Virus record (IMG/VR): IMGVR_UViG_3300040801_001445
Coordinates: 1-40,249 of that record
Length of the DNA stretch: 40,249 nt
Reading direction: 5' to 3' (one strand)
Source of the DNA: a virus
This document shows, in pieces, positions 2,778 to 36,569 of this stretch. The notes under the pieces were generated by a model. The model was not told where the DNA came from and did no database searches. It saw nothing but the letters and a program-made list of their open reading frames with translations. Within the stretch, counting starts at the first letter, position 1; every line of letters begins with the position of its first letter. Position numbers and translations under genes: made by a program.

Positions 2778-2829
2778 GTACGTGTAAACGTACAGGGTCA
2801 AAGCCCCTTGCCCTTCAATGGTTTACACG
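2778..2829. repeat. Inverted pair of the genome-wide motif: CGTGTAAAC (2781..2789) and GTTTACACG (2821..2829), separated by 31 nt
   Basis: Both 9-bp arms are perfect. The left arm sits within a local dyad, GTACG-TGTAAA-CGTAC (2778..2793). Confidence 0.85.
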
Positions 2830-2960
2830 GTCCAGGCACGTCCAGGGGCGTGGGCCCGGCCCCGGCGCGGCGCCTTCGCGGCCTACTCGGAACCATCGAC
2901 ATCCCCGAACAACCACCCCCCGATCATCAGTCTTTCCCGATCCAAGCCGCTTCCTACTCG

Positions 2961-2993
2961 CCTCCCTCTTCCCCCGACTTCCTCCCTCTTCCC
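2961..2993 (+). repeat. Direct repeat of the 13-mer CCTCCCTCTTCCC (2961..2973 and 2981..2993) within a polypyrimidine tract
   Basis: Seen directly. The plus strand is pyrimidine-rich from about 2900 to 2995. Confidence 0.8.
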
Positions 2994-3464
2994 AGGCATG
3001 CCGCGGGCTCCCGCTGTGCTGCGCCCTGGGGCGCGTTCCTGCGTCCGCCTGGCCCTGGCCCGTTTCAACAGCATCGACGCTCTGGCGGCGTTCCTGGAGC
3101 GCTCACAGCGTCCGTGCCTGTCGCGCATGCTGGAACATTCCATCGCGCCGTCTCGCGCATGGGTGCGGAGCGGTTTCCTGGGGGCTTCTGGTGAGGTCGA
3201 GCGGGAGTCGAGGCGGGCAATGTCACATTGCAGAGCGGGGGCGCCTGGAGCGGCTTGCGGGGGCCTTCCCTGTAGTGGCTCTGCTGTAGCGGGTGCGAGG
3301 GTACCTACTCACTCCCTCGGCATCCTTCTCACGGTGTACCCTCCCCGTTCCGCCCGTCACGCTACACGTCCCCATCACGCTCCTGGCAGACCGTTGGTCG
3401 GGCCGCTCGTCGGGAGAGCGTTTAAACTCTGGACGGGGAGCGGCTGAGCAGCTACGGTTCAGGG

Positions 3465-3487
3465 GTCAGCGTGAGGCTGACGCTTCC
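3465..3487 (+). terminator. Hairpin GTCAGC-GTGAG-GCTGAC followed by a C/T-rich tail
   Basis: A 6-bp stem is followed by GCTTCC, immediately 5' of leader motif copy 1. Confidence 0.3.
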
Positions 3488-3505
3488 TCTTCACGGACTC
3501 GGAGA
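3488..3505 (+). promoter_or_regulatory. Conserved early-gene leader, copy 1: TCTTCACGGACTCGGAGA
   Basis: Lies 6 nt upstream of the ATG at 3512. UCUUC can pair with GGAGA (the SD), leaving ACGGACUC in the loop. Confidence 0.6.
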
Positions 3506-3511
3506 AACGCC

Positions 3512-3778
3512 ATGACCATCACCGACCGCGACACCCGAACCGCACGGGTCGCCCGCCTCGCCGCCAGCAAGCTGATGCTCGCGGAGCACGACATCCAGGC
3601 CGTCGCCGGAGAGCTTCTGAAGGCCGCGGCCCACGCGCCGGATCTGGCTCTCGTTGAAGCCTACGCGCTCCGCGATGAAGTCACGGCGCTGCGGCGCCGG
3701 CTCGCAATCCTGGCTCGCAGCGTGGAGAACGGCGACGAGTACCTTGGCGAATCCGGCATGGGCCCGGCCGCCGAGTGA
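3512..3778 (+). CDS. Hypothetical early protein, 88 aa
   Basis: Tail of ORF-track 3293..3778 from MTITDRDTRTARVARLAAS, preceded by the conserved leader and SD. Confidence 0.7.
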   Translation: MTITDRDTRTARVARLAASKLMLAEHDIQAVAGELLKAAAHAPDLALVEAYALRDEVTALRRRLAILARSVENGDEYLGESGMGPAAE

Positions 3779-3786
3779 CCGCACCA

Positions 3787-3820
3787 GGGCCCGGCGCCGA
3801 GCCGGGCCCGCCCTTCTTCT
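3787..3820 (+). terminator. Intrinsic-terminator-like hairpin GGGCCCGGC-GCCGA-GCCGGGCCC followed by a CCCTTCTTCT tail
   Basis: A perfect 9-bp GC stem with a 5-nt loop and a T/C-rich tail, directly after the stop at 3776..3778. Confidence 0.5.
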
Positions 3821-3834
3821 TCACGGACCGGAGA
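3818..3834 (+). promoter_or_regulatory. Conserved early-gene leader, copy 2: TCTTCACGGACCGGAGA
   Basis: Lies 8 nt upstream of the ATG at 3843. It has the same stem arms with a 7-nt loop containing GGA. Confidence 0.6.
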
Positions 3835-3842
3835 ACGCCACC

Positions 3843-3929
3843 ATGACCCTCGCCATTCTCGCACTCTGCACCGTCACCGGCTGGACCCTGGGACGCGCCC
3901 TCACGCGCGCCGTCGGCCTGGCCCGCTAA
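3843..3929 (+). CDS. Small hydrophobic peptide, 28 aa (MTLAILALCTVTGWTLGRALTRAVGLAR)
   Basis: The conserved leader and SD lie upstream. Third codon positions are almost all G/C. Confidence 0.55.
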   Translation: MTLAILALCTVTGWTLGRALTRAVGLAR

Positions 3930-3939
3930 ACCGCTTGCA

Positions 3940-3980
3940 GCGGGGCCGCTGAGCAGCTACTCTCGGCCCCGCTTTCATCA
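3940..3980 (+). terminator. Intrinsic-terminator-like hairpin GCGGGGCCG-N15-CGGCCCCGC followed by a TTTCATCA tail
   Basis: A perfect 9-bp stem. The loop carries the 13-mer GCTGAGCAGCTAC, which also occurs at 3443..3455. Confidence 0.5.
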
Positions 3981-3998
3981 TCTTCACGGACTCGGAGA
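3981..3998 (+). promoter_or_regulatory. Conserved early-gene leader, copy 3: TCTTCACGGACTCGGAGA
   Basis: Identical to copy 1, 7 nt upstream of the ATG at 4006. Confidence 0.6.
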
Positions 3999-4005
3999 TT
4001 CAACC

Positions 4006-4662
4006 ATGGCTACCCCTTCCGCCCTGACCACCGACCGCGAAGCCTGGCTCACGGAAGCCGCTTCGCTGCTCCTCGACACCGTCGTTGCTCCCGCTTGCCA
4101 GGCCCTCGGCCACGAGTACACCAGCGCCCTGGCCGACCTGGGCGACTCCTGGCGCGTCGCCTGCGGCTGGCCCATCGGCTCGCGTGCCGGCGCCCGCCGC
4201 GGCATTGCCGGACAGTGCTTCGCGCGCTCCGCCAGCGCTGCCGGCCTGGCCGAAGTCTTCATCTCGCCGCGGCTTTACGAGGGCCCGCAGGTTCTCGCCA
4301 CGCTTCTTCATGAGCTGCTCCACGCTGTGGACGACTGCCGCGACGGACACCGTGGCCGGTTCGCTGCCATGGCTCGCGCCGTGGGCTTCGTGGCGCCCCT
4401 CACGGAACTGCACCTCACGGACGCGCTCACGGCCGAGCTGGCCGAGATGGCCGAGCTGCTGCCGCCCTATCCGCATGCGGCCCTGGACGTGAACGCCGGC
4501 CGCAAGAAGCAGGGCACGCGCATGGTCAAGGTCGAGTGCGGCGCCTGCGGCTTCCTGTTCCGCACTACGGCCAAGCATCTGGCCGCCCTGGACGAGTCGA
4601 GCCCCTGCCCGGCCTGTCACCAGACGGAATCCCTGCTGATCGACGGAAGCGTCGGGGAATGA
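4006..4662 (+). CDS. SprT-like zinc metalloprotease domain protein with a C-terminal zinc ribbon
   Basis: ORF-track 4006..4662. It has an HELLHAVDD (HExxH) motif and C-terminal CGACG...CPACH cysteine pairs. Confidence 0.7.
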   Translation: MATPSALTTDREAWLTEAASLLLDTVVAPACQALGHEYTSALADLGDSWRVACGWPIGSRAGARRGIAGQCFARSASAAGLAEVFISPRLYEGPQVLATLLHELLHAVDDCRDGHRGRFAAMARAVGFVAPLTELHLTDALTAELAEMAELLPPYPHAALDVNAGRKKQGTRMVKVECGACGFLFRTTAKHLAALDESSPCPACHQTESLLIDGSVGE

Positions 4663-4728
4663 CCCCGGCGCCGCCGGGGGCCCTGGTCACAGCGACAGGG
4701 CCGCCGGGGGCGCCGAGCCCCATCCCCA

Positions 4729-4746
4729 TCTTCACGGAATCGGAGA
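4729..4746 (+). promoter_or_regulatory. Conserved early-gene leader, copy 4: TCTTCACGGAATCGGAGA
   Basis: Lies 7 nt upstream of the ATG at 4754 and is preceded by GC hairpins (for example GGCCCTG-N10-CAGGGCC at 4679..4702). Confidence 0.6.
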
Positions 4747-4753
4747 ACCGACC

Positions 4754-6121
4754 ATGACCGCACAAGCATCCATCATCACCAGCGAAGCGCGCGAGCGCCT
4801 CGGCCGGCCCGCGTGCCGCCAGGCCCTGGAGTCGTTCCGCGAGGCCCTTGGTCTCGTCGGCAGCGAAAGCGTGTCCGGCGTGAGCCTGGCTACGCTCGTC
4901 GATCTGAAAAACAATCCGCAGGGGACCAGCGCGAAGCGCGAGGACGCGAAGCGCGCCATGCGCCGGCTGTGCACAGCGGCTGGCTACCGATGGGCGGACG
5001 TGGAATTCGACACCATGGCGCTCGTGCTGCGCGTCGCCGAGGACCTTCACGGAATGCCCGGCGCGGAGCCGGAGCCCCAGGCGGAGCCCGAGCCCGAGCC
5101 CCAAGCCGAGCCGGAGCCGGCCCCCGAGCCGGCCCCCGAGCCGGAGCCGGAGCCGGAGCCGAGCATTGCGTCCCTGGTGGGCCCCGGCGCCGAGCCCGAT
5201 GCGGCCACGGCCCTGGCCGACGCAATCCGCCGCATCGCTGGCAGCGCCTCGGCGCCTGTGGACGAAGGCCGCGTCATCGAGCTGATCCGCCAGCATGCGG
5301 GGCCGCGGCAGACGACCACCACGCACCGGATCGAGATCCCCCAGGCGTCCGGCGATCCGGTCGTCATCGAAGGCGCGCACCCTGCCGTGCCGCGGCTGGT
5401 GCAGGCGCTGGCCGCAGGCCGCGAGCGCGTGCGCCGTGTAAACGTCCTCATGGTGGGCCCCGCCGGATCCGGCAAGACGCACGCGGCCGAGCAGGCGGCG
5501 GAAGCCCTGTCCGTGCCCTTCTACAGCATCGGCGCCGTCGACGATGCGTTCAGCATCCTGGGATTCCGGGACGCACGCGGCGAGTACCAGGCGACCGCGT
5601 TTCGCCAAGCATGGGAAGAGGGCGGCCTGTTCCTCTTCGACGAGATGGATGGCAGCGCGCCCGAGGCGCTGCTTGTGGTGAACCAGGCGCTGGCGAACGG
5701 GTGCATGGCATTCCCGGACGGAATGGTGAAGCGTCACCCGGAGTTCTACTGCATCGCCGCCGCGAACACTTACGGGCACGGCGCGGATCGGCAGTATGTG
5801 GGCCGCTCGCAACTTGATGCGGCCACGCTCGACCGCTTCGCCACCATGGCGTTCGACTATGACGCCACGCTAGAACGGAAGCTTGCTGGCGATACGGAAC
5901 AGGCGTCGCGCTGGTGCGACTACGTGCAAGCGGTCCGCCAGGCTGCGCGCACGAGCGGCGCGCGCATCATCGTCAGCATGCGCGCGAGCATCATGGGCGC
6001 CGATCTGCTCGCCGCCGGCTGGTCCGTCGAAGAAGTCTGCGAGTCCGTCCTCTGGAAAGGCTGCCCGGCCGACACGCGGGCACAGCTTGAATCCTCCGCA
6101 GGCAAGCCCACGGGAGTCTGA
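4754..6121 (+). CDS. AAA+ ATPase (AAA_5, MoxR/CobS-like) with an N-terminal Glu-Pro repeat linker
   Basis: Walker A is MVGPAGSGKTH and Walker B is LFLFDEMD. The downstream AAANTYG...LDAATLDRF region is typical of AAA_5. ORF-track 4754..6121. Confidence 0.8.
   Translation: MTAQASIITSEARERLGRPACRQALESFREALGLVGSESVSGVSLATLVDLKNNPQGTSAKREDAKRAMRRLCTAAGYRWADVEFDTMALVLRVAEDLHGMPGAEPEPQAEPEPEPQAEPEPAPEPAPEPEPEPEPSIASLVGPGAEPDAATALADAIRRIAGSASAPVDEGRVIELIRQHAGPRQTTTTHRIEIPQASGDPVVIEGAHPAVPRLVQALAAGRERVRRVNVLMVGPAGSGKTHAAEQAAEALSVPFYSIGAVDDAFSILGFRDARGEYQATAFRQAWEEGGLFLFDEMDGSAPEALLVVNQALANGCMAFPDGMVKRHPEFYCIAAANTYGHGADRQYVGRSQLDAATLDRFATMAFDYDATLERKLAGDTEQASRWCDYVQAVRQAARTSGARIIVSMRASIMGADLLAAGWSVEEVCESVLWKGCPADTRAQLESSAGKPTGV
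5063..5161 (+). repeat. Imperfect tandem GAGCCN/GCCCCN repeats encoding AEPEPQAEPEPEPQAEPEPAPEPAPEPEPEPEP
   Basis: Seen in both the DNA and the ORF-track peptide. Confidence 0.9.
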
Positions 6122-6123
6122 CC

Positions 6124-7023
6124 ATGGCGTACTTCACCGACAAGCCTGAAGAGGCGCGCGCGGTCCTGGGATTCCCGGCGCAGCGCGCGGCAATCTTCGA
6201 AAGCGTGTCCGACTTCGCCTCGTGGGCGATCCAGGCGGCACCCTCGGCGGGCGCGAGCGTCACGGTTGAGGCTTCAGACGATTGGGACTATGGCGTGGGC
6301 TTCGCTGGCATGCTGGAGCTGGCCCGCGTCGGGGGATGGCAGGAAGGCGCCGACCGCATGGCGTCCCTGTCCCTGACTCTGCCGGAAGCCGAGAGCGTGG
6401 ACACTGTGCCCAAGCGGGCGCGCCGCGTCGCTGGCTCGCGTCCGCACGCGGGAGCGGCAGCGGCCGGCTCGCCGCGCGCCATGATCCGACGCGTCCCCAC
6501 GGACCAGGCGTCCACCAGCGCAGGCGTCCGCGTGCTGCGCGTCGTGCTCCCCTGGGGGAAGTCTGCGCACGTAGAAGGCGACGCGTGCGAGCGCTACGGC
6601 GCCGCCCTGGTGGAATGCATCGACGCCACGGAAGCGGCCGGCATTCGCTGTGAAGTAGTGCTCCAGCAACAAACCGACACCGGGACCGTCGCGCGCGTTA
6701 CGGCCAAGCATGCCGGAGAGCACGTAGACCGGGCCGCCCTGGCGTTCCTGATCGCGCACCCCGCGGCCACGCGCCGGCTGCGCTTCCGCGCGCAGGAAGG
6801 GCCCGAAGGATCCTGGCCGTGCGGAAGCTACGGCGGCCCCACCACCCAGCCGTGGGCTCGCGGCGAGCGCGAGTCCGGCGCCCTGGTTTTGCCCTACATG
6901 AGCCCAGGATTCCCGCGCAAGGTCGAGACCATGGCCGAGGCGCGCGCCTACGTGCGGGCGCTCTTCGAGCAGCACATTGCCCGCCTGGCCGCGGAAGCGG
7001 CGGCGGATCCGGCGGCGGCCTGA
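6124..7023 (+). CDS. Hypothetical protein, 299 aa, partner of the AAA ATPase
   Basis: ORF-track 6124..7023. It starts 3 nt after the ATPase stop and has protein-like composition. I saw no MIDAS DxSxS motif. Confidence 0.7.
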   Translation: MAYFTDKPEEARAVLGFPAQRAAIFESVSDFASWAIQAAPSAGASVTVEASDDWDYGVGFAGMLELARVGGWQEGADRMASLSLTLPEAESVDTVPKRARRVAGSRPHAGAAAAGSPRAMIRRVPTDQASTSAGVRVLRVVLPWGKSAHVEGDACERYGAALVECIDATEAAGIRCEVVLQQQTDTGTVARVTAKHAGEHVDRAALAFLIAHPAATRRLRFRAQEGPEGSWPCGSYGGPTTQPWARGERESGALVLPYMSPGFPRKVETMAEARAYVRALFEQHIARLAAEAAADPAAA

Positions 7024-7074
7024 GCGGGCCGCCGTTCACCATCCACCACCATCCATCATTCGGAGCGTTTAAAC

Positions 7075-7437
7075 GTGACCAGACACCAACATCCCATGGC
7101 CCGCCAGCTACGCCAGCGCCCGACGCCGGCCAGCATCCCTGACCAGGCGGCGGCCCTTGTGAGCGCCTACAGCGGCCGCCAGGGGCGGCCGAGCGTGACC
7201 CTGTACCGGGACGCAGGGATCCAGGCTTGCGCCTGTCTAGCGCGCACCCTGGCCGAATCGGAAGGGAGCAAGGCCGGGACCATCGGCCTGGAGCCGTCCA
7301 GGCTGCTCCGCCGTGCGTCGAAGGGTGAGGCGCTGACCGTCCACCAGCGCGCCGCCGTGCGCGCGGAGGCCGGCAGCATCTTGCGACTCTGCGGCTGGTC
7401 CGTGACGTGGCGGGACCGCGCGGAGCTGGACCAGTGA
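7075..7437 (+). CDS. Hypothetical protein, 120 aa, GTG start
   Basis: ORF-track 7075..7437. A GGAG lies 9 nt upstream, and CGTTTAAAC sits between the SD and the GTG. Confidence 0.55.
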   Translation: MTRHQHPMARQLRQRPTPASIPDQAAALVSAYSGRQGRPSVTLYRDAGIQACACLARTLAESEGSKAGTIGLEPSRLLRRASKGEALTVHQRAAVRAEAGSILRLCGWSVTWRDRAELDQ

Positions 7438-7667
7438 CGGCGCCCGAGCGGACGGACCGGGAGGGCGCCGTGCGCGCCCGCCCTGGCGACGCGTTCACCG
7501 TGGACCAGATACCGCCCGACCGGAACGGCCGCGGAGGCTACGCCATTGTGCGCCTGGCGACGGACACGGACCCGGAGTCCGTCGTCGCCAGGCGCAACAC
7601 GTACTGCGCCGCATGGATGGCGCTTCAGAGTCTCGCCGGCGGCGAGACCATCGCAGCGGAGGAGTGA
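7434..7667 (+). CDS. Hypothetical protein, 77 aa, GTG start
   Basis: ORF-track 7407..7667 trimmed to the GTG at 7434, which overlaps the upstream TGA (GTGA) and has a GGAG 7 nt upstream. A start at 7407 cannot be excluded. Confidence 0.5.
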   Translation: MTAPERTDREGAVRARPGDAFTVDQIPPDRNGRGGYAIVRLATDTDPESVVARRNTYCAAWMALQSLAGGETIAAEE

Positions 7668-7669
7668 CC

Positions 7670-7882
7670 ATGGCCCTTCGATTCACGAGACGAGACGGCG
7701 AGGGATTCTGGATCGGCGACGCGTTCGTGCGCGTGGCCCTCGGCGGGACGCACGGCGGCCGGCAGCAAATCGGAGTCAGCGTGACGGCCGACCGGGCCGT
7801 GCGCGTGCTCCGCGAGGAGCTGGACGACCGACCGGCTCCCGACCGGCGCCCGGAATGCGCGGAGGGCCCTGGCCATGAATGA
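7670..7882 (+). CDS. csrA: CsrA/RsmA-like RNA-binding protein, 70 aa
   Basis: The peptide MALRFTRRDGEGFWIGDAFVRVALGGTHGGRQQIGVSVTADRAVRVLREEL aligns by eye with E. coli CsrA ([47 protein letters not shown]). The blocks TRRxGE, IGD, IGV and REE are shared. A strong GGAGGAG SD lies upstream. Confidence 0.6.
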   Translation: MALRFTRRDGEGFWIGDAFVRVALGGTHGGRQQIGVSVTADRAVRVLREELDDRPAPDRRPECAEGPGHE

Positions 7883-8381
7883 CCCGCTGCTGACCCCGCT
7901 CGCCGGGCGCCTGGCCCGGCGCCGCATGGGCGACACGCTGACGCTGTGGCGCCGGACGCTGGCCCTGCTCGGCGGCCCGGCTCGCTTGGCCCTGCCGACG
8001 CTCGCCCGGCCCTGGCCGGACGAGTCCGTGCCCGTGCCCACGGACCGGGAGTGTCGGGCGCGCCGCTGCCTGGCGCTGCCGGGTCCGGTCCTCTGGATGG
8101 CCGCGCCCGTGGGCACGGACGGCCAGCGCGGAGCCGTGACCCTGGACTACGTGCCCGGCCGCCGGAGCGGGCAATGGCGCGCGACCGTGCATCGGTACGG
8201 CGGGCGCCTCGTGCGCACGGCAGACTCGCCGTTCATCGCGCTGGCCCGCACCGTTTACACGGCCCAGGAATCCTGGCGCCCGGCGCTGCGGCTCGGCGAC
8301 CTGAAGCACGCGGCGGAGCTGGCCGCGCGCACCTGGCACGGCGACGCGGGCGACGCGGACCCGCGCTTCCGTTCTGAATAG
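7875..8381 (+). CDS. Hypothetical protein, 168 aa
   Basis: ORF-track 7875..8381. It overlaps the end of the CsrA-like gene by 8 nt and ends in the repeated TGAATAGACGA element, using the TAG. Confidence 0.6.
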   Translation: MNDPLLTPLAGRLARRRMGDTLTLWRRTLALLGGPARLALPTLARPWPDESVPVPTDRECRARRCLALPGPVLWMAAPVGTDGQRGAVTLDYVPGRRSGQWRATVHRYGGRLVRTADSPFIALARTVYTAQESWRPALRLGDLKHAAELAARTWHGDAGDADPRFRSE

Positions 8382-8394
8382 ACGAACCACCACC
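8374..8394 (+). repeat. Gene-end repeat, copy 1: CTGAATAGACGAACCACCACC
   Basis: Identical to the 21-mer at 8560..8580 and closely similar to 9076..9095. Confidence 0.9.
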
Positions 8395-8410
8395 CAACGG
8401 GAGACCCACC

Positions 8411-8563
8411 ATGGAATCCTTCATCACGCACCTGGCCGCTTTCGTGGTCGGAATCACCACCGGAGTGCTGTACCTGATCGCCGTCGGAGCTGCGACGGCA
8501 GCCATGCTGTGGGCGTGCTCCGCCTGCGCCGCAGCCGTGCGCCGAGCGCGCGACCGTTCCTGA
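8411..8563 (+). CDS. Small membrane protein, 50 aa (MESFITHLAAFVVGITTGVLYLIAVGAATAAMLWACSACAAAVRRARDRS)
   Basis: Manual translation. A GGGAGA SD lies upstream and third-position G/C is high. It is below the ORF-track size cut-off. Confidence 0.55.
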   Translation: MESFITHLAAFVVGITTGVLYLIAVGAATAAMLWACSACAAAVRRARDRS

Positions 8564-8580
8564 ATAGACGAACCACCACC
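8560..8580 (+). repeat. Gene-end repeat, copy 2: CTGAATAGACGAACCACCACC
   Basis: Here the TGA is the in-frame stop of 8411..8563. Confidence 0.9.
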
Positions 8581-8593
8581 AGAGGAAGAAGCC

Positions 8594-9079
8594 ATGAGCC
8601 ACAACTACAGCGACGACGAGCACAATGAAGCGCTGGAACTGTCACGAAAGCTGGTGGCAGACCTGAAAGACTGGTCCGAGCGGGACAGGCTGCACTACTT
8701 CATCGAACACTTCGCGCCGTGCGTCATGCCCGCGGCGCTGGAGCTAGGCGAGCGCCGCGAGGACGCGAAGCGCCAGGGCGATGTGACTGCCGGCGCCATG
8801 ATGCTGGCCGCACTGGCCGGCTTCCTGAAAGGCGCGCTCGAAGCGGAGGGTGCCGTCGGCATGCGCGACGGACTGACTGCCGACGAGCGCGACATACTCC
8901 ATGAGGTTTACACGAACACCGCGGAGGTCACCTACGAGTGCTCGCGCGTGGCCGGCATCGACTTCGCCGTGTTTCAGCGGCACGGCAAGTCGAAGCTGAC
9001 GGATCCCGACGAGATTGCGAAGGCGCTGCGACGCAAGCTGGACGAAGAGGGCGACGAGGGCGATCAGCTCCCGTCCTGA
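8594..9079 (+). CDS. Hypothetical acidic protein, 161 aa, last gene of the rightward operon
   Basis: ORF-track 8594..9079, with an AGAGGAAG SD upstream. Confidence 0.75.
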   Translation: MSHNYSDDEHNEALELSRKLVADLKDWSERDRLHYFIEHFAPCVMPAALELGERREDAKRQGDVTAGAMMLAALAGFLKGALEAEGAVGMRDGLTADERDILHEVYTNTAEVTYECSRVAGIDFAVFQRHGKSKLTDPDEIAKALRRKLDEEGDEGDQLPS

Positions 9080-9687: not shown

Positions 9688-9688
9688 C

Positions 9689-26264: not shown

Positions 26265-26282
26265 GGCAGCGGCGGCCTCCTA

Positions 26283-29386: not shown

Positions 29387-31010
29387 CTTGGAGCACTGCC
29401 TGCGCCTGCGCCGCGTCCTTCACGGCTCGCGCGGTGCCCTGGCTGGCCTCGATTCCCGCGGCCTGGGCCTGTGCCTGCGCGCGCTCCTGCCGGCGGCGGG
29501 CCACCTCGGAAGGCGCACGCATGATGACCGGGGGCACGTTGACCAGCTCGTTGCCGAGAAGCTGCGCCAGCTCATCCGTGTCGATGTTCTCCAGCACGGT
29601 GGGGTCCGACTCCGCGAACGGCGCGATCGTGTTCACGAAGCGCACGATGTCCTCCACCTCGCCGCTGCGCTGCGCACGCGAGATGGCGGACTGGTAGCCG
29701 ATTTCGATGGTGGTGCCGTCGAGCGCGTCGGGCGGCTCGGGCAGCAGGCCGCGGCGCATGGCGCTCTGGAACGTGCGCTGGATGACCGGATCCAGCAGCT
29801 CGGGCTCCAGGCGCGAGAACAGCGGTGCCACGCGCATCAGCTTGTCCTGGCGGCGCTCCATGGTGAACGTGGCCTTCACGTTTACACCCGTGGAGTCCGC
29901 CGTGATGTCGAACACGTCGTTGTAGAACGCCTTGCGAATCAGCTCGCGCTCGGCTTCGAGCACGCTGTCCGAGATGTCCGGGCGCGCGCCGGTCTGGATG
30001 GGCTCGATGCGGCCCTCGTCGCCGGCGCGGTAGTAGTTGATGCCGCCGGGGAACGTGCGCACCGGCCCGAGAAACGAGTCGTCCGGCATTTGCAGCGGAG
30101 GGTCGATGGCCTTTTGCGCGGCGCGGATGTACACCTCCCACATGCGCTGCATCATGCGGATGGTCGGCAGCATGCGGATCCCGATTCCGACGCCGTAGGT
30201 CTCGCCCGTGCGCACGGACAGCCGCGGGGTGGCGTAGGGGAACTCGTTGTAGCCCTCCTCGCGCAGCACATGGCCGCCGTCGCAGTCGATCACCCACACC
30301 GAAGCGAACGGCCGGTTCGATGCGTCGAGCATGCCATGTAAACGCTCGCGCCGCGGGAACACCGCATGCACGACGGTGTACTCTTTCTTGCCCTCCTCGG
30401 CGCCGTCGCGCACGTAGCGCTGCTGGATCGAAGCGGGCAGCGACGCAAAGCCGAACTCCTCGATGAGAAAGCTGCACTTCCACTTCGACTCGCGCATCAC
30501 CGTGTCGATGACGCCGGCCGCGTTCTCCATGGCGACGATTTCGCCGAGGAAGCGGGACTGGAACGCCATGCCGCCAGGACGCTCGCCCATGTAGAGGCAC
30601 GCGGTCCCGAGCCCGCCCAGGTCCGCGTAGGTCATGTGCAGCGCCGGGTGGAAGTTGCTCTGCGGCTCGTTGAGCATCCGGTACAGCTCGTTGTGCACCT
30701 CGTAGAGCCAGAGCTTCACCTGCCGGTTCTCGCGCAGGTCGCGGTCGCGAGGCGCCATGTGGAACCACCGCGACTGGCGCGGCGTCAGGTTCGCGTGGAC
30801 GCCGCCGGCGAACACGTCGTTGGCTTCTTCGGCCGTGCTGTCGTAGATGCGGCGCCGGCGAAGCGAGCCCTTCTGCCACGTCGTCGTGAAGGTGGCGCGG
30901 TTCGGCATCACCAGCTCGGAGACTTCCTGCCAGGTGTCCGCCCACAGGGATCGCTCCTCCTGACCTGCCTTGAACTGCTGGAGCACCCTGGCTCCGACCG
31001 TCATGTCCAT
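29379..31010 (-). CDS. Portal (head-to-tail connector) protein
   Basis: ORF-track 29379..31010. Its 543 aa compare with 536 aa for T7 gp8, and it lies between TerL and the scaffold gene. Confidence 0.8.
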   Translation of the reverse strand: MDMTVGARVLQQFKAGQEERSLWADTWQEVSELVMPNRATFTTTWQKGSLRRRRIYDSTAEEANDVFAGGVHANLTPRQSRWFHMAPRDRDLRENRQVKLWLYEVHNELYRMLNEPQSNFHPALHMTYADLGGLGTACLYMGERPGGMAFQSRFLGEIVAMENAAGVIDTVMRESKWKCSFLIEEFGFASLPASIQQRYVRDGAEEGKKEYTVVHAVFPRRERLHGMLDASNRPFASVWVIDCDGGHVLREEGYNEFPYATPRLSVRTGETYGVGIGIRMLPTIRMMQRMWEVYIRAAQKAIDPPLQMPDDSFLGPVRTFPGGINYYRAGDEGRIEPIQTGARPDISDSVLEAERELIRKAFYNDVFDITADSTGVNVKATFTMERRQDKLMRVAPLFSRLEPELLDPVIQRTFQSAMRRGLLPEPPDALDGTTIEIGYQSAISRAQRSGEVEDIVRFVNTIAPFAESDPTVLENIDTDELAQLLGNELVNVPPVIMRAPSEVARRRQERAQAQAQAAGIEASQGTARAVKDAAQAQAVLQGG

Positions 31011-31013
31011 GGC

Positions 31014-31316
31014 TCAGCCCCCGCTGCCGATAGTCGTGCCGCCGCGGGGACGCATGCCCGTGTTGCCGGCGTTCCTGCGCTCCGTGAGGATGAGCGACCG
31101 GCGACCTTGGCGGCCGGCCTGGCGGCGCAGCAGGTCGCGCCTTCGTTGAACGCCCGAGATGCCCGGCGTGGGCACCGGATCCGGCTGCGGAATCGTCGGC
31201 GCGTCCGGGAACAGAAGGTCGCCGGCGGCGCGGATCGGAGTCGTGGCGAAGTCGAACAGCGCCGTGGTCGTGTCCTGCACGAAGTCCCACGCGTCGCTCA
31301 GGAATCCAATTGCCAT
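31014..31316 (-). CDS. Hypothetical protein, 100 aa
   Basis: ORF-track 31014..31316, between TerL and the portal gene. Confidence 0.55.
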   Translation of the reverse strand: MAIGFLSDAWDFVQDTTTALFDFATTPIRAAGDLLFPDAPTIPQPDPVPTPGISGVQRRRDLLRRQAGRQGRRSLILTERRNAGNTGMRPRGGTTIGSGG

Positions 31317-31317
31317 G

Positions 31318-32763
31318 TCAGTACCCTCCGAAAGGGTCGTACTCAGAGATGGCCCGGTCCATCTGCGGAGACCGGAACGTGCCGCGGTCGGGGATTCCCT
31401 CCAGCGGGTTGTAGTCGCTCTCCGCTACAGGCGGGCGGACGACACTGCGAGGGTCCACGTCGGGCTCCTTCATGACGCCCTGACGGAAGGCGTCCGCGGG
31501 GTGGCTCGCCCAATCGTGGACGGGCTTCTCCTCGAACGTCTGCTTGTCCTCGTTCCACTCCCGGTGGTACTCCAGGAGCGCGTCGATCAGGCGCTCGCAC
31601 TTCACGGTGTCGAACACGCAATGGTACTTGCGCAGGTAGCGTCGCACCTGCGAGATGCCGTCGTCTACGAAGTGTCGTTTACACACGTCGAAGCGGATGC
31701 CCAGGCGCAGCGCCTCGTCGATGCGGCGCTTCTTCGTCACGTAGTCGCGCACCTTCAGATCCCACGGGCCGATGTGGTTCGAGTAGATGTACGGCTTCTC
31801 GTTGACCTTCTTGATCCAGTAGTCCAGCGACCCGTTCGGCTCCATCATGAAGTCGATGAACCGGCGCTCGTTCATGTGCTTCTGCACGAAGATGATGGCC
31901 GTGGCGTCGAACCCGATGTCCCACCACGTTTCAACGGGCAGGTCGGGGTCGTAGGGCACCCGTTCCATGCGCCCGTCCTTGCGTAGATCGCGGATGATGT
32001 CGCCGTAGTAGGCGCCGTGCAGCGGCGCGTCGAAGCTGTTGTAGAACTCCTGCTGGATGTGCTCCTCGCTGACGCCGCGCTCGCGCTCCTCGTCGATCAT
32101 GGCGGGCGTGACCACGGGCACCATGACGCCGTTCGGGTCGCGCTTCTTGGTCACGTCGATGGTGAGGTTCTCGGCCATCCACCGGCCAGGGTGCTCGGCC
32201 ATCATGCGCTGCGCCGTCTGGTAGAGCTGGTAGCCGTGGTTGCGCCCCCGCGCCGTGTAGATGAACACGGCCCATCCGTCGTTTTCCGCGAGGATCGGCG
32301 CGAGGTAGTCCCACGCTGCGGGGTTCTGGATCGAATACTCCGAGAAGACGATGCCGCGAGGGTTCGGGCCCACGAGCGCGGACGGGTCGTCGGTGCCGAG
32401 CACCTGCCAGATGGAGCCGTTCACCAGCTCGATCAGCATGTCGTCGTCGCGCTCGCGACGGATCAGGTCGCGCGGGAACATATCCCGGTAGCGGTGCGAC
32501 TTGCTCGGGTTGAACGTGTCCACGGTCATGCCGTTCCACACGAACTTCCGGGCTTGCTTCAGCATCGGGCCGATGTGCCAGTAGATGCCTGGATTCTTCA
32601 CCGCCTCCTTCGCGGTCCACGCCAGGGCGGACAGGTCTTTCCCCGCGCGTCGATGCCACAGGCCGACGTACCGTTTCCCGCCGTTCTCCATGAACGACTG
32701 GAACGGGATCTGATACTCACGCGGCGTGTAAACGCGCGGGTCTGGAACCTGAATCACCGCCAC
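31318..32763 (-). CDS. terL: Terminase large subunit
   Basis: ORF-track 31318..32763. A Walker A-like motif (LWHRRAGKD) and a Walker B-like motif (GIVFSEY) are present, and the C-terminal half is nuclease-type. Confidence 0.85.
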   Translation of the reverse strand: MAVIQVPDPRVYTPREYQIPFQSFMENGGKRYVGLWHRRAGKDLSALAWTAKEAVKNPGIYWHIGPMLKQARKFVWNGMTVDTFNPSKSHRYRDMFPRDLIRRERDDDMLIELVNGSIWQVLGTDDPSALVGPNPRGIVFSEYSIQNPAAWDYLAPILAENDGWAVFIYTARGRNHGYQLYQTAQRMMAEHPGRWMAENLTIDVTKKRDPNGVMVPVVTPAMIDEERERGVSEEHIQQEFYNSFDAPLHGAYYGDIIRDLRKDGRMERVPYDPDLPVETWWDIGFDATAIIFVQKHMNERRFIDFMMEPNGSLDYWIKKVNEKPYIYSNHIGPWDLKVRDYVTKKRRIDEALRLGIRFDVCKRHFVDDGISQVRRYLRKYHCVFDTVKCERLIDALLEYHREWNEDKQTFEEKPVHDWASHPADAFRQGVMKEPDVDPRSVVRPPVAESDYNPLEGIPDRGTFRSPQMDRAISEYDPFGGY

Positions 32764-32773
32764 GGCGAGGCGC

Positions 32774-33094
32774 TCACTTCCGGCGGATTTCGATGCTCGC
32801 GCCAGCGGCTTCCGTCGGCACCGGCGGATCCACGGTCAGCGCCCCGGCGGCCACGGCCGTGACGACGTACTCGCCGTCGAAGCTCGCGGAGCCCCGGACC
32901 TCGATGATGCTGTTGGCCTCGAAGACGCCGAGCCCATTGCCGCTGTCGGTGATCGTTCCGTTCGCGTCGCCGGCGATGGTGGTCGCGACGATGCGCTGCG
33001 AGACGCCCTTGTCGCGCGTGATGTCGCGGGACAGGTAGCGTTCCGATGCGGAATTGACGGTGCGGGTGTTCGAGATGCGGGTTGCCTCACGCAT
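32774..33094 (-). CDS. Hypothetical protein, 106 aa
   Basis: Tail of ORF-track 32774..33232 from MREATRISNTR, with the ATG at 33094. Confidence 0.55.
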   Translation of the reverse strand: MREATRISNTRTVNSASERYLSRDITRDKGVSQRIVATTIAGDANGTITDSGNGLGVFEANSIIEVRGSASFDGEYVVTAVAAGALTVDPPVPTEAAGASIEIRRK

Positions 33095-33096
33095 GG

Positions 33097-33315
33097 TCAG
33101 AACCTCTTGCCGTAGTCGATGGGGTATCTGCCGGTGGGGAACTCGCGCCGAATCGTGGGGGTCGGCAGCGGAGCCCCCACCACGCCTTCGATTTCCGTGT
33201 CCGTGAGCGTGCGGAAGTCCACCGACGCCCACAGGGACATCAGCTCGTCTTCGGTCTCACGCGTCAGGATCCGTCCCGCCGGGAGCTGGGAGCGCGGATC
33301 GTTGCCCTTCGCCAT
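33097..33315 (-). CDS. Hypothetical protein, 72 aa
   Basis: ORF-track 33097..33315. Confidence 0.5.
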   Translation of the reverse strand: MAKGNDPRSQLPAGRILTRETEDELMSLWASVDFRTLTDTEIEGVVGAPLPTPTIRREFPTGRYPIDYGKRF

Positions 33316-33634
33316 GGGGGATCGCCTCTCGCTGCTCGACGGCCACAGACTTCGGCTCGCCGTAGTTGATGATCTGGATGGTCGGCACGGCGTAGCCGTC
33401 GCCCTTCACCTCGACGGCCTTCTTCTTCGGGAACAGGAACTGCGCCACCTTGTCGTTCAGGTTCGAGCGCTGCAGCGTGGTCAGGTCAGGATCCTGCGCG
33501 TCCACCGCCATGTTCAGGACGGGGTGGTAGGCGTCGGCAACGCGCTCAGGTCCGAACTTCTCCTTCGCCACGGCATTCGCCAGCGCCAGGAACGATTCGG
33601 GGTCGTCGATCTTCGGGGCCTTCGGCTTCGCCAC
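33257..33634 (-). CDS. Hypothetical protein, 125 aa, GTG start, first gene of the late operon (possibly the small terminase, by position only)
   Basis: ORF-track 33257..33634. The upstream context is CGTTTACACGGAGCCCGCTC-GTG, with a GGAG SD. Confidence 0.5.
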   Translation of the reverse strand: MAKPKAPKIDDPESFLALANAVAKEKFGPERVADAYHPVLNMAVDAQDPDLTTLQRSNLNDKVAQFLFPKKKAVEVKGDGYAVPTIQIINYGEPKSVAVEQREAIPHGEGQRSALPAPGGTDPDA

Positions 33635-33689
33635 GAGCGGGCTCCGTGTAAACGGTTCGCGGCGATACTACATCACGCGGGGGAGCGCA

Positions 33690-33723
33690 AGGAAGAAAGC
33701 CCGGTGACGGTGCGCGGCCGGGC
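33690..33723 (-). terminator. Intrinsic terminator after the recombination module
   Basis: On the minus strand: GCCCGG-N13-CCGGGC followed by TTTCTTCCTT, downstream of the RecT stop at 33810. Confidence 0.45.
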
Positions 33724-33809
33724 GCCGCGGGCCCTGGTCTCCCATCCGACTGGAGAGGTAGCCGCCGCGCGCGTGCCGCGCGGCGCCTGGGCCGGTCCCT
33801 CGGCAGGGA

Positions 33810-34838
33810 TCAGTACGGGATGCTGTTGTCCATCCTCTCCTGTGCAATCCGCGCGAGCAAGTCGCGCTCGCTGGCGGTGAGGCGGTCGTCGCGCTGGAAC
33901 GCGTCGATCACTTCCTGGATGGCGTCTGCCTTCTCCAGGATGCCGAGCTGGTCGCGGTAGCGCTTGAACGCCGCGTCGGCCGGCTCCTTCGGACCGGCTT
34001 CCGGCGGCGCCTGCGTGGCCTGGTTCTTGATCCGCTCCTTGGCCTCGTTCATGGCCTGCGTCAGCGTGTGGCGCTCGGGATCCGTCCAGGCGTCGTTCTG
34101 GATGGCGTTGCGCATGTCGCGCCACTGCTCGCGGGTCTCCAGCTTCTCGATCTGCTCCAGCGTCTTGTCGAACGCGTCGTTCGCCACCAGCTCGGCCTCG
34201 GCCTCTTCCGGCTCGATGGTCTGCGGCTGCTGAGACGCGAGTCGCTGTTTCAACGCCGCGCTCCCGCCCTGGGTCTGCGGCGGCGGCGTCACGTCGCGGG
34301 GCTCCGGCGAGATGTCGCGCGCCTCCTCGGCGACAGCCACACCGCGGAGCACGTCAGGGAACGCGTCGCGAATGGCGAAGGCGCGCGCCCGCATCTTCAG
34401 CATGCGCTCGGGGTACTGCGTCCAGGGGCCCTGCTTCCCCCACAGGCTGGCGCGCTTGGCGTCCTCCTGCGAGAACTCGGCCTCGACGGGGCTCTGGCCG
34501 CGGCGCTTCACCACGCACTTCGCCGTCATGGTCGCGCGGTCGAACGTCTCCTGGATGTCCTCGCAGTCTGCGCGTCCGCGCACCAGACCGATCAGCGCAT
34601 CGCCCCACACGGACGGGCGGCCGTTGATGACGGCGATGTTCTGCAGCGACTGGACCGGGGGCAGGCCAAGCTCGGCGCCCATGGCCGCGGCGACCATCAC
34701 GTTGCCCGGCTTCCCCTTGTAGTCCTTCGGCACCATGTCCGACTGCGCCAGCATCTCGGCCAGGCGCCAGGCTTCCGTGGCGTTGGTCGGGACGAGATTG
34801 AACCCGCCCGGCATTGCGATCTGCGTTTTCTCGCTCAT
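33810..34838 (-). CDS. recT: RecT-family single-strand annealing protein
   Basis: ORF-track 33810..34994 trimmed to MSEKTQIAMPGG. The conserved RecT-like core is MVAAAMGAELGLPPVQSLQNIAVINGRPSVWGDAL. It lies next to a YqaJ-like exonuclease. Confidence 0.75.
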   Translation of the reverse strand: MSEKTQIAMPGGFNLVPTNATEAWRLAEMLAQSDMVPKDYKGKPGNVMVAAAMGAELGLPPVQSLQNIAVINGRPSVWGDALIGLVRGRADCEDIQETFDRATMTAKCVVKRRGQSPVEAEFSQEDAKRASLWGKQGPWTQYPERMLKMRARAFAIRDAFPDVLRGVAVAEEARDISPEPRDVTPPPQTQGGSAALKQRLASQQPQTIEPEEAEAELVANDAFDKTLEQIEKLETREQWRDMRNAIQNDAWTDPERHTLTQAMNEAKERIKNQATQAPPEAGPKEPADAAFKRYRDQLGILEKADAIQEVIDAFQRDDRLTASERDLLARIAQERMDNSIPY

Positions 34839-34840
34839 GG

Positions 34841-35794
34841 TCAGTCTTCCTTCGGTCGGTTTTTCTGAGGCGAGAACCGCATGGTGACGAACTCCGTGGG
34901 CTCCACGGTGTACGCCTTGCGCTTCTCCTTCTTGCGGATGTAGGCCCCCTTCGTTTCGCCGGGGATGTACCCGACGGCGTGCTCGCCCATCCACTCCTGC
35001 ACTTGCTCCTTCAGCGCATCCCGCGCCTTCGTCAGGTCACCGATCCGCCGCTGGATATCCTGAAGCGTCCGGTGGTAGTGCACCGCCTCCTGCGGCAGCT
35101 CGACGTGCTCTCCGTTGGTGCCGGGGTACAGCTCGCGAAGAATCTGCTGCGTGCGACGGTGCCCGAACACCAGCTCCGGCGGCTCGCGCTCCTCGACGTT
35201 CCGCGTCCAGAAGTCGAGACAGGTCTCCTCGATCATGGCCGCGATGTCCGGGTCGAACTGCACCACGTACAGACGGAAGTCGGTGCGTCCGAACCAGGCG
35301 AACAGGTCGCACACCTGCGTGCGGGTCACCAGCATGTGGTGGTGGCACTGGAGCAGATAGTGGGGCGGAATCTGGTCCGTCATCTCCTCGCCCCACTCGC
35401 TACGGTCCGCGAAGAAACACAGCTTCATCTCACCGCAGCGCGAGCCCTGGCCACTGATGGCCACCATGATGTCCGGCGTGCTGCTCACGAAGCACAGGTC
35501 ACGATGGATCATCGGAGCGTCAGGCACGCGAACCACGAACTGCTCCGGGTTTACCTGTAGCTCCGTGGCCAAGCGCTTCAGGTAGCGCTGCCGCAGCACG
35601 TCCTCGAACTCCGACCCGAGCGCGCGCGGGTCGTCGTCGTCGTACTCCTCGTTCGCCACGGCCGGCTTCTCGCCAATCAGGCGCAGGTACACGTCCATCG
35701 GCTGCGCGAACGGAGACTCGTTGAACAGCGCTGCGATGTCGCTGCTCCCGATGGTCTCGTTCTTGATCCGCGCGTGCTCCTCGCTCAGCGCCAC
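34841..35794 (-). CDS. YqaJ-like (lambda Exo-type, PD-(D/E)XK) recombination exonuclease
   Basis: ORF-track 34841..35794. The N-terminal motif IGSSDIAALFNESPFAQPMDVYL is typical of YqaJ. GTG start. Confidence 0.75.
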   Translation of the reverse strand: MALSEEHARIKNETIGSSDIAALFNESPFAQPMDVYLRLIGEKPAVANEEYDDDDPRALGSEFEDVLRQRYLKRLATELQVNPEQFVVRVPDAPMIHRDLCFVSSTPDIMVAISGQGSRCGEMKLCFFADRSEWGEEMTDQIPPHYLLQCHHHMLVTRTQVCDLFAWFGRTDFRLYVVQFDPDIAAMIEETCLDFWTRNVEEREPPELVFGHRRTQQILRELYPGTNGEHVELPQEAVHYHRTLQDIQRRIGDLTKARDALKEQVQEWMGEHAVGYIPGETKGAYIRKKEKRKAYTVEPTEFVTMRFSPQKNRPKED

Positions 35795-36213
35795 GGCAGA
35801 TCATCCTTGATCGTGAACGGGCACGATGCGCGCTGGCACTCGTTCACGCTTTCGCCGACGCGGTTGCAGTCCTCGACGCTGCACTCCACCAGCGGCATCT
35901 CGGGCTCGGGCGCCGACGGCGCCAGGGATGCGGTGGGCTCGGGCGGCTGCCGACGCTTGAAGCTGTCGAACAGGTCCGCCGTCAGCCGATCCTCGATGGC
36001 CTTGGTGAACTCCTCGCTGTTCGCCACGCGGCGCGCCGTGTCCGCGATGTGCGGCTCCATGGCCTGCTGGAGCAGCGCACGGTTGATGAACGTCGGGTCG
36101 TTGCGGATGGCGTCGGCGACGGCGCCGCGGATGGCATCCAGCACGGCCTCGCCAAGCTCACGCACCATGTCACGGCGCTGGCGGGTCGGCTTCTCTGCTT
36201 CGTTTTCGGTCAT
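35785..36213 (-). CDS. Hypothetical protein, 142 aa, with a C-terminal Cys cluster
   Basis: Tail of ORF-track 35785..36426 from MTENEAEKPTRQ. The ATG at 36213 overlaps the upstream stop (ATGA). Confidence 0.6.
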   Translation of the reverse strand: MTENEAEKPTRQRRDMVRELGEAVLDAIRGAVADAIRNDPTFINRALLQQAMEPHIADTARRVANSEEFTKAIEDRLTADLFDSFKRRQPPEPTASLAPSAPEPEMPLVECSVEDCNRVGESVNECQRASCPFTIKDDLPWR

Positions 36214-36569
36214 TTCCCATGCTCCTCGTGTAGAGTGACCAGTCGCGTGTAAACGGTTTCGAGCGTGGTCAGTGCTCGCCCGCTGTGGATCATGTCGCGG
36301 TGGCAGCGGTACACGGTCCAGCCGAGCAGCAGCGCCGCCTCGTACTTGTCCATGTCCTGCCGCGCACCGCCGATGCTCTGGTGTCCTCCCTTCGATGCGC
36401 TGCGCACCAGCCCCTCGACTTCGCACGCCAGCTTCACGTCGGGCCAGGCGAAGTCGAAGCGCCAGCGTCGCGTCGGGTGGAAGCGCAGCTCCCGCTCAGG
36501 GGTCGGCAAAACGGCGCTCGCCCGGATGTGCAGCGCCAGCGTCTCCTCCAGTTGGCTCAGCCGGGCCAT
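36210..36569 (-). CDS. PD-(D/E)XK-type endonuclease-like protein (DUF559/Vsr-like pattern)
   Basis: ORF-track 36210..36569. The pattern is FDFAWPDVKLACEVEG...H...D..K...LLLGWTVYR. A GAGGAG SD lies upstream. Confidence 0.45.
   Translation of the reverse strand: MARLSQLEETLALHIRASAVLPTPERELRFHPTRRWRFDFAWPDVKLACEVEGLVRSASKGGHQSIGGARQDMDKYEAALLLGWTVYRCHRDMIHSGRALTTLETVYTRLVTLHEEHGK

Follow-up and report, generated by a model that had tools for sequence, protein, structure and literature searches.

This study was concerned with a short word, GTTTACAC, that is dispersed over both strands of a phage genome, and with a gene of the same genome that encodes a SprT-like protein. The genome is IMG/VR virus record IMGVR_UViG_3300040801_001445, positions 1 to 40,249, and this whole stretch of 40,249 nucleotides is called the window below. 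Bases 1-117 are repeated identically at 40133-40249. From these identical ends of 117 bp, the phage genome in the window is judged complete, at about 40,132 bp (67.7% G+C), and either circularly assembled or terminally redundant. The minus strand carries a podovirus-like structural module (a T7-type portal, tubular tail proteins A and B, internal virion proteins and a Bbp19-like gene), RecE/RecT and an arm of small early genes. The plus strand has a module of its own at about 3500-9079. It includes the gene at 4006-4662 (plus strand), a candidate source of the reader of the word, which is predicted to encode a SprT-like zinc metalloprotease with an HELLH motif, a third His and a C-terminal CxxC...CxxC zinc ribbon. 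The SprT-like module runs rightward and the early genes run leftward, and the divergent region of about 1.1 kb that separates them holds a noncoding inverted pair of word copies, CGTGTAAACG at 2781-2790 and GTTTACACG at 2821-2829, separated by a gap of 30 bp (31 bp between the 8-mers).

Counts, phasing and conservation of the word

The 8-mer GTTTACAC occurs 19 times in the window, nine times on the plus strand and ten times on the minus strand, or about once per 2 kb, and 12 of these copies carry the 10-mer CGTTTACACG. An earlier reading of this DNA from its letters (the sequence-only reading) had listed the 19 positions and strands and the 12 longer copies, all of them exactly, and had described the word as strongly over-represented. 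The over-representation holds against every background used. Dinucleotide shuffles are expected to give 0.13 copies of GTTTACAC and 0.01 copies of CGTTTACACG, and Markov models of orders 0-3 give 0.08-1.16 copies of GTTTACAC. In 1000 codon-preserving shuffles the mean number of coding copies was 0.6, with a maximum of 5, against 13 observed.

The word has definite borders. A G precedes TTTACAC in 19 of 19 occurrences in the genome, the 8-mer is preceded by C at 16 of the 19 sites and followed by G at 15, and there is no consensus beyond 10 bp. GTTTACAC is a one-base variant of the palindrome GTTTAAAC, a relation that the sequence-only reading had missed. The palindrome itself is found at four sites in the window (3420-3427, 7067-7074, 17577-17584 and 39191-39198); fewer than 0.1 are expected from dinucleotide composition and about 0.7 from an order-3 Markov model. 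The full form of the word is best written as a 10-bp quasi-palindrome, C-GTTTAMAC-G, where M is A or C.

Six of the 19 copies are noncoding, as had been reported, and the other 13 are coding; the orientation is sense for 12 and antisense for seven. The coding copies favor particular frames: six read VYT and five read (R/G)VN, and the remaining two read TFT (14395) and VCK (31677). This phasing, proposed in the sequence-only reading, holds with the copy at 36247 read in gene 36210-36569, which is supported by PHROG. The same reading had called GTT and GTA rare Val codons, and they account for 5.6% and 4.1% of Val codons in the window, respectively.

The window has collinear relatives in six metagenomic fragments, at 70-89% nucleotide identity: five fragments from three IMG/VR samples (L001-L005) and a sixth, L110. 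Word density in these relatives is 0.35-0.85 copies per kb. All ten of the window sites covered by L001-L005 (75-89% nucleotide identity) are kept in at least one relative, and both the position and the frequency of the word are conserved. Some turnover is also seen, since the site at 22583 is altered in L003, the site at 31677 is altered in L002 and three sites are gained in relatives. The rare codons GTA, GTT, TGT and AAA spell the word at positions where relatives encode the same residues with common codons. For example, the peptide GVNVKA at 29880 is encoded in the window clade with GTA, and a more distant relative (L024) encodes the same peptide with GGG GTG AAC. The Cys-Lys at 31677 is TGT AAA in the window clade and TGC AAG in L002. 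Together with the codon-preserving shuffles, these substitutions show that selection acts on the DNA word and that the peptide is not the target, as the sequence-only reading had suggested. Rare codons are tolerated in essential structural genes, which implies that this selection is strong. Farther away the word is rare or absent. L022, a relative of similar G+C whose capsid is 78% identical, has a single copy in 15.6 kb, two others at 69% capsid identity (L023 and L024) have none, and a metagenome scan returned only distant relatives, all without the word.

One claim of the sequence-only reading was retained in part. The arm of small genes had been described as free of the word, and the exact GTTTACAC is absent from it. 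The gap, which is the largest in the genome, is not significant (P(gap >= 6667) = 0.60 for 19 random sites on a circle), and the arm holds variants of the family, the GTTTAAAC at 39191 and ATGTAAAC, with one mismatch, at 39741.

Several known elements were considered as explanations of the word and rejected. A promoter reading, in which TTTACA would approximate a -35 hexamer, fails because no conserved -10 element follows at 16-18 bp, a search of 2350-3600 for a sigma-70-like promoter found none, and copies lie antisense within genes. A mobile element or longer repeat is rejected because conservation stops at 10 bp. The resemblance to a DnaA box, as far as we know that consensus, is partial and does not fit the strictly conserved end bases. 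The resemblances to a LacI/GalR half-site, a TyrR box, Ter and a parS half-site, compared in the same way, are also partial, and the second half-sites are missing. ParB/parS and KorB sites differ from the word as perfect palindromes of 13-16 bp with a reader of the ParB fold; the parS half-site GTTTCACG occurs 0 times in the window, and PHROG and Pfam family scans of the window open reading frames (ORFs) found no ParB-like family.

The SprT-like gene and its co-occurrence with the word

The product of 4006-4662 matches PHROG 6361 with an E value of 3e-29 and the Pfam SprT-like family with an E value of 0.0044, which is under the curated cutoff. It is 41-47% identical to actinophage genes annotated as "SprT-like protease." Residues H102, E103, H106 and H115 are invariant in 43 homologues. 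In the C-terminal CxxC...CxxC ribbon, C178, C201 and C204 are conserved, so that a zinc-binding module of the DNA-contact type follows the protease core. The AlphaFold2 model of the protein has a mean confidence score (pLDDT) of 90.6. Searches recovered the gene from 160 GenBank phage records and 484 IMG/VR stretches.

The word and this gene recur together in unrelated phages. A search with the pattern of the inverted pair found an unrelated phage contig with 66% G+C (L105) in which the same pair, with a distance of 38 bp between its sites, precedes a homologue of 4006-4662 (39% identical) by about 350 bp; these are the only sites in the contig. Five further genomes or contigs were chosen because a homologue of the SprT-like gene was present. 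Copies of the word number 13 in 48 kb of Bacteriophage 4A, 23 in 47 kb of the Microbacterium phage Barnstormer (with G after 21 and C before 19), 15 in the first 20 kb of the Streptomyces phage Crosby, 11 in the first 20 kb of the Arthrobacter phage Elezi, and 4 in the 13.8 kb of contig L114. GTTTACAC is the top over-represented 8-mer in these phages. When all window ORFs were compared by tblastn (E < 1e-4) with 4A, Barnstormer, L114 and L105, the SprT-like gene was the only shared gene; 4A and Barnstormer are the word-carrying genomes that were compared in full. These phages are siphoviruses, and their structural genes lack homology to the structural genes of the window. The word falls within these non-homologous structural genes, which means that it accumulated independently in each lineage. 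This is convergent accumulation of one word in unrelated phages.

In addition, 80 IMG/VR loci were taken solely through peptide patterns of the SprT-like alignment (891 kb, 32-72% G+C). In these loci GTTTAAAC occurs 434 times against 12.2 expected and GTTTACAC occurs 178 times against 18.2 expected. No enrichment is seen for the doubly substituted GTGTACAC (5 copies, 8.2 expected). The joint enrichment of GTTTAAAC and GTTTACAC across gene-carrying loci indicates that the general word is the quasi-palindrome C-GTTTAMAC-G. Phage loci without the gene, 1.2 Mb in all, show no enrichment, with 10 copies of GTTTAAAC against 27 expected and 54 copies of GTTTACAC against 37. Counted by locus (at least 4 kb), the word is enriched in 69 of 86 loci with the gene and in 6 of 93 without it (Fisher P = 4e-27). 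The six gene-less exceptions are the left arms of Crosby and Elezi, in which the gene is elsewhere in the genome, and four fragments of the window clade that do not cover the gene region. With these six fragments set aside, 0 gene-less loci are enriched. The co-occurrence of word and gene is thus tight.

Two further comparisons bear on this co-occurrence. The Curtobacterium phage Halsey (PQ868994.1, L118) is syntenic with Barnstormer, including a sigma-like DNA-binding gene and a serine integrase, and has no SprT-like gene; it contains zero copies of GTTTACAC in 40 kb. Halsey has a dispersed 8-mer of its own, GAAGCTCG, with 18 copies against about 1.3 expected, on both strands and mostly coding. 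In nine actinobacterial genome loci with the gene (L202-L210, presumably prophages), the gene is flanked by sites, and the DNA more than about 4 kb beyond it has none. Among open-access papers and bioRxiv preprints, none was found that describes the word or connects it with the gene. One preprint reports that Cluster AZ phages keep a SprT-like gene upstream of the integrase, and models the product as a Spartan-like protease with a small DNA-binding domain; it states no function and mentions no motif (10.1101/2025.05.26.655371).

The form of the word varies among carriers of the gene. GTTTAAAC is the dominant form in most phages with the SprT-like gene. High-G+C loci of actinophage type use GTTTACAC almost exclusively, this form also predominates in the window, and loci at 42% G+C use both. 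At equal G+C the preferred variant differs by SprT-like clade: it is GTTTAAAC, GGTTAAAC or ATTTAAAC, and in one clade ATTTAAAT. In the clades that prefer GGTTAAAC or ATTTAAAC, RVSALQ replaces RTTAKW in a short helix after the ribbon hairpin, where the window protein has RTTAKH. In 37 of 81 loci the 300 bp upstream of the SprT-like gene contain a site, where the density of each locus would predict 15.7 such loci, and the distances peak at 39-45 bp. These patterns of clade, variant and upstream site hint that the protein itself may read the word.

Orientation also differs among carriers. Sites are co-oriented with the SprT-like gene in 31 of 35 cases in actinobacterial loci L202-L210, and 10 of 11 are on one strand in Elezi (L121). 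Orientation is mixed in the window, in Crosby and in Barnstormer, in which eight sites are on the plus strand and 15 on the minus strand of a genome transcribed in one direction. Four Barnstormer (L117) copies in the right arm, at 44091, 44352, 45059 and 45357, sit in repeated flanking sequence. At 44091, and read at this copy only, the word occupies the spacer of a promoter-like arrangement, TTGCGC-gcgacGTGTAAACgcga-TATGCT, which ends 6 nt before an ATG. Such an arrangement would make the word an operator inside a leaderless-type promoter.

Individual sites and other features of the genome

The VYT copies are all sense. They are found at 8253-8260 (plus strand, gene 7875-8381), 8906-8913 (plus strand, gene 8594-9079), 9404-9411 (minus strand, ORF 9064-9774), 22583-22590 (minus strand, gene 22132-22620, with one mismatch in L003), 32726-32733 (minus strand, gene 31318-32763, kept in L001 and L005) and 36247-36254 (minus strand, near the 3' end of small gene 36210-36569, kept in L005). 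The site at 9404 is probably also kept in L110, where a copy with similar flanks stands at the expected offset, just past the stretch aligned by BLAST. The (R/G)VN copies are all antisense. Three read RVN: 5436-5443 (minus strand) in the AAA_5 gene described below, which is kept in L110 at about 70% nucleotide identity; 13316-13323 (plus strand) in the tail-fibre gene 12938-14068; and 23939-23946 (plus strand) in the tail tubular B gene, which is kept in L003/L004 and is CGC GTC GGC in L022. Two read GVN: 14972-14979 (plus strand) in the virion protein gene 14072-16603, and 29880-29887 (plus strand) in the portal gene, which is kept in L001, L002, L003 and L022. The same virion protein gene holds the sense copy at 14395-14402 (minus strand, TFT frame). 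The copy at 31677-31684 (plus strand) is antisense in the terminase-like gene 31318-32763, in the V-C-K frame with TGT AAA, and is kept in L001.

Besides the inverted pair, four copies are intergenic. The copy at 21350-21357 (minus strand) is 14 nt upstream of the start of gene 20847-21335 and that at 26332-26339 (minus strand) lies between gene 26351-26842 and the tail tubular A gene; both are kept in L003/L004. The copy at 33646-33653 (minus strand) is 11 nt upstream of the start of gene 33257-33634 and is kept in L005. The fourth, at 27893-27900 (plus strand), is 124 nt upstream of the major capsid gene. Around it, the 28 bp examined at 27883-27910 (CCACCGGACCGTTTACACGGCTGCCCGG) are identical in L002 and L003, where overall identity is only 75-85%, and the block may be longer than this. 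Such identity points to a larger regulatory element at that one site.

Directly downstream of the SprT-like gene are an AAA_5 (MoxR/CobS-like) ATPase gene (4754-6121, plus strand) and then a gene for a DUF7192 protein (6124-7023, plus strand). Of 85 loci, 43 have an AAA_5 ATPase close to the SprT-like gene, and these are mainly from marine phages; the ATPase has no match in the word-carrying 4A, Barnstormer and L114. The ATPase and the DUF7192 protein may be partners of the SprT-like protein, and judging from these comparisons they are not required for the word.

The stretch of about 1.1 kb at 2415-3511, between the divergent transcription units, has no convincing gene. It contains an AT-richer patch at about 2670-2750, the inverted word pair and one GTTTAAAC, and it could contain an origin, the genome ends or non-canonical promoters. 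At the other end of the window, a gene at 40100 to about 249 crosses the genome junction. The small protein encoded at 36210-36569 (minus strand), next to RecE/RecT and an O-like replication protein, belongs to PHROG 503 and has an FDFAW...EVEG motif. By this motif it looks like a nuclease of the PD-(D/E)XK or Vsr/DUF559 type; searches gave no Pfam match and no PDB sequence match.

Several palindromes of 6 bp are absent from the window: CCCGGG (0 against 25.9 expected), GACGTC (0 against 22.9), GAGCTC (0 against 22.4), CACGTG (0 against 18.2), CAGCTG (0 against 17.8), AGGCCT (0 against 9.1) and CGTACG (0 against 8.1). CTCGAG occurs once against 23.5 expected, and CTAG occurs 10 times against 51. 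The missing palindromes are a strong signature of restriction avoidance, in contrast to the enriched quasi-palindromic word. The word is 10- to 36-fold enriched and not avoided, and family scans of the window ORFs found no methyltransferase, which does not fit a restriction-modification target of PmeI type (GTTTAAAC). A second over-represented word, GTTTCAAC(G), occurs eight times against about 0.6 expected, at 1257, 3062, 10009, 18621, 25706, 28470, 31928 and 34247. It is enriched in L001-L005 too (9 against 0.4) and is not enriched in other phages with the SprT-like gene.

The affiliation of the phage was also considered. NCBI lists the contig under a metagenome-assembled genome of Halieaceae. 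In a megablast search against GenBank phages, bases 1-25000 had no match and bases 25001-40249 had only short matches (about 3%) at about 71% identity, in the RecT region. A portal search across GTDB genomes gave nothing useful. PHROG and Pfam scans of the window ORFs, which covered all but a few small ORFs, found no integrase, no helix-turn-helix (HTH) repressor and one sub-threshold ribbon-helix-helix (RHH) match.

Candidate readers and roles of the word

The reading we favor, with a probability of roughly 55%, is that the word is a recognition site in duplex DNA for a phage factor inherited together with the SprT-like gene, and that this factor is most probably the product of 4006-4662. The symmetric C...G flanks fit a duplex site, as does the lack of enrichment of GTGTACAC. 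A binding site for a phage DNA-binding protein had been one of the roles proposed by the sequence-only reading, and it is the best-supported class. The two readers proposed then, the RHH protein at 38923-39177 and the Cys/His protein at 39174-39755, are unsupported and were rejected: neither has a relative in PDB or PHROG, and no homologue of either was detected in the whole 4A and Barnstormer genomes or in the examined stretches of other gene-carrying loci.

Under this reading, the phage would maintain C-GTTTAMAC-G throughout its own chromosome, roughly once every 1-2 kb. The SprT-like protein would bind it, possibly as a dimer, through the region of the C-terminal zinc ribbon and the short helix that follows. 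A site or an inverted pair just upstream of the gene would provide autoregulation or represent an ancestral operator, and the dispersed copies would load or tether a DNA-dependent metalloprotease along the phage DNA. The tethered protease may then act on proteins bound to that DNA, for instance on host silencers, on restriction or defence enzymes that translocate, or on a repressor. This tethering model of what follows binding is drawn by analogy with Spartan-type proteases and ArdC. Genome-wide repression of the stoperator kind is the main alternative within the same class. A wider proposal is that a widespread family of small SprT-like phage proteins reads C-GTTTAMAC-G and that phages which acquire the gene seed the word chromosome-wide, at about one per kb, as would have happened independently in siphoviruses of Actinobacteria, low-G+C marine phages and this podovirus; the protein would be a sequence-addressed, DNA-tethered protease that marks the DNA of the phage and acts on whatever proteins are bound there. 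We hold this proposal tentatively, at somewhat short of even odds.

The word has likenesses to several known systems. Cluster A stoperators, which are read by L5 gp71, are also short sites read by a phage protein, with dozens of copies at about one per 1.5-2 kb, intergenic and coding, on both genome strands, plus an operator at the promoter region of the regulator. The Arthrobacter-type sites resemble them further in being co-oriented with the SprT-like gene and, presumably, with transcription. Stoperators are cluster-specific, asymmetric sites of 13 bp in one orientation to transcription, and the protein that binds them is the HTH immunity repressor encoded by a temperate phage. In contrast, the word is a quasi-palindrome of 8-10 bp in mixed orientation in the window, its candidate reader has a predicted metalloprotease fold, and it recurs across unrelated phages and host phyla. 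A single orientation was absent from the window and from Barnstormer and was approximated only in Elezi and the actinobacterial loci, and the window scans show neither an integrase nor an HTH repressor. SprT/Spartan proteins (SPRTN and Wss1) and ArdC-type plasmid proteins share with 4006-4662 an HExxH zinc site followed by a zinc-binding DNA-contact module, and the activity of SprT/Spartan-type enzymes needs DNA binding (PMC7534798, PMC5127644). The structural similarity of 4006-4662 to them was not confirmed by Foldseek.

Several points weigh against the favored reading. No PDB match below an E value of 1e-3 was obtained by Foldseek with the 4006-4662 model. The best protease match was abylysin (4JIU, E 0.29), and the ribbon and C-terminus were weakly similar to the MCM N-terminal zinc finger and rubredoxin (E 0.08-0.6). 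The assignment as a protease therefore rests on the HExxH...H motif, the sub-threshold Pfam match and the annotations of others. To our knowledge, SPRTN, Wss1 and ArdC-type enzymes recognise DNA structure and not sequence, and we know of no SPRTN-type protease that reads a sequence or has a cognate word spread over a genome. The link between the word and the gene is one of co-occurrence, from which we infer the role of the protein as reader, and the correlation of clade with variant comes from few independent events. Seventeen of the 86 gene-carrying loci are not enriched, including two (L173 and L187) with zero copies. In the Microbacterium foliorum phage Dismas (NC_042099.1 1-20000, L119), which has a 35%-identical homologue, there is no GTTTAMAC in 20 kb. 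A different word, AACGGCAA, occurs there 7 times against 0.34 expected, which might mean a different specificity. In addition, a purely symmetric DNA site does not predict the co-orientation seen in Elezi and the actinobacterial loci, and a small, divergent partner gene could lie beyond detection by BLAST.

Such a partner gene is one form of another explanation, which we consider unlikely: that the reader is some other factor, which would be a small partner missed by homology or a conserved host protein, and that the protease is linked to it functionally, for example by cleaving the protein at the word. Pairs of a protease and a DNA-binder, such as ImmA/ImmR, IrrE/DdrO and CapP/CapH, are an established design, and the arrangement would resemble the ImmA/IrrE/CapP protease-repressor pairs or the DNA-protein crosslink proteases. 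The gene-carrying phages without a dispersed word would also fit it. Furthermore, Cluster AZ and EB actinophages have a sigma-like DNA-binding protein next to the SprT-like gene (10.1101/2025.05.26.655371). This protein was rejected as the reader, since Halsey has it without the word and the window and 4A carry the word without a detected copy of it; its tblastn matches also include no Streptomyces phage, and thus not Crosby, a third carrier of the word. No gene besides the SprT-like gene is common to the window and 4A, Barnstormer, L114 or L105, and a universal host reader does not account for phages of similar G+C in which the gene and the word are both missing. The word could instead act in RNA, as a processing, decay or translation-control site, with a zincin-fold protein acting on RNA; the quasi-palindrome gives GUUUAMAC or GUKUAAAC in the transcript in either orientation. 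In several phages many sites directly precede a ribosome-binding site or fall between the Shine-Dalgarno sequence and the start codon, for example GTTTAAACgcaacaAGGAG in L142, L149 and L151 and the Shine-Dalgarno-ATG gap in Elezi and Crosby, and such placement could reflect either free intergenic space or a role at the RNA level. The co-oriented Arthrobacter-type sites are also as an RNA signal would have them. With 13 of the 19 window copies coding and far from gene starts, an inverted pair in divergent noncoding DNA, flanks whose symmetry suits a duplex, and start-adjacent sites that relaxed intergenic constraint would produce as well, a role in RNA is improbable.

The two remaining explanations had both been put forward in the sequence-only reading. 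The word might be a target for nicking or base modification in virion DNA, with the SprT-like protein as an accessory or as the enzyme. Short consensus words at fixed positions are a hallmark of the localized interruptions of T5, phiKMV-like and tf/LUZ24-like phages, which lie on one strand, number 4-14 per genome and have different consensus sequences (PMC3517423). The window also encodes the small nuclease-like protein at 36210-36569. The word, in contrast, is on both strands (nine and ten copies), and its inverted pair, 39 bp apart, would give a staggered break if both copies were nicked. No nuclease or methyltransferase is common to the carriers of the word, and the small nuclease was rejected as reader, having no PDB sequence match and no counterpart in other word carriers. 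Nicking or modification is on balance an improbable role. Mimicry of a host signal, that is, of a DNA uptake sequence or Chi-like site abundant in the host chromosome, would account for the over-represented word of the 8-12-mer class, the density of about one per 1-2 kb, both orientations, the preferred frames and the inverted intergenic pair, all of which resemble the Neisseria DNA uptake sequence, the Pasteurellaceae uptake signal sequence and, in part, Chi, as far as we know these sites. Those sites are features of host chromosomes served by host machinery. The word, in contrast, occurs only in phage DNA and accompanies a phage gene from host to host. It was not found to be abundant throughout one host lineage; phages of several phyla carry it, among them Streptomyces, Arthrobacter and Microbacterium phages and marine metagenomic phages of 32-72% G+C. 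Halsey (Curtobacterium) and Dismas (Microbacterium foliorum) are without it when other actinophages have it, and in the gene-carrying actinobacterial loci it is gone more than about 4 kb beyond the gene, in what is presumably host DNA. Host-signal mimicry is effectively excluded.

If the wider proposal is true, the word and the SprT-like gene would form a device for counter-defence, takeover or genome-wide control, and one of an undescribed kind. Should the protein indeed read the word, the Spartan-type protease class would gain its first sequence-addressed member, and the word would be a new viral mark of the self chromosome. If the protein is not the reader, some other reader would have to be common to very different phages. 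In either case the word gives a conserved phage SprT-like gene a testable partner in cis, and it predicts the presence of the gene from raw sequence.

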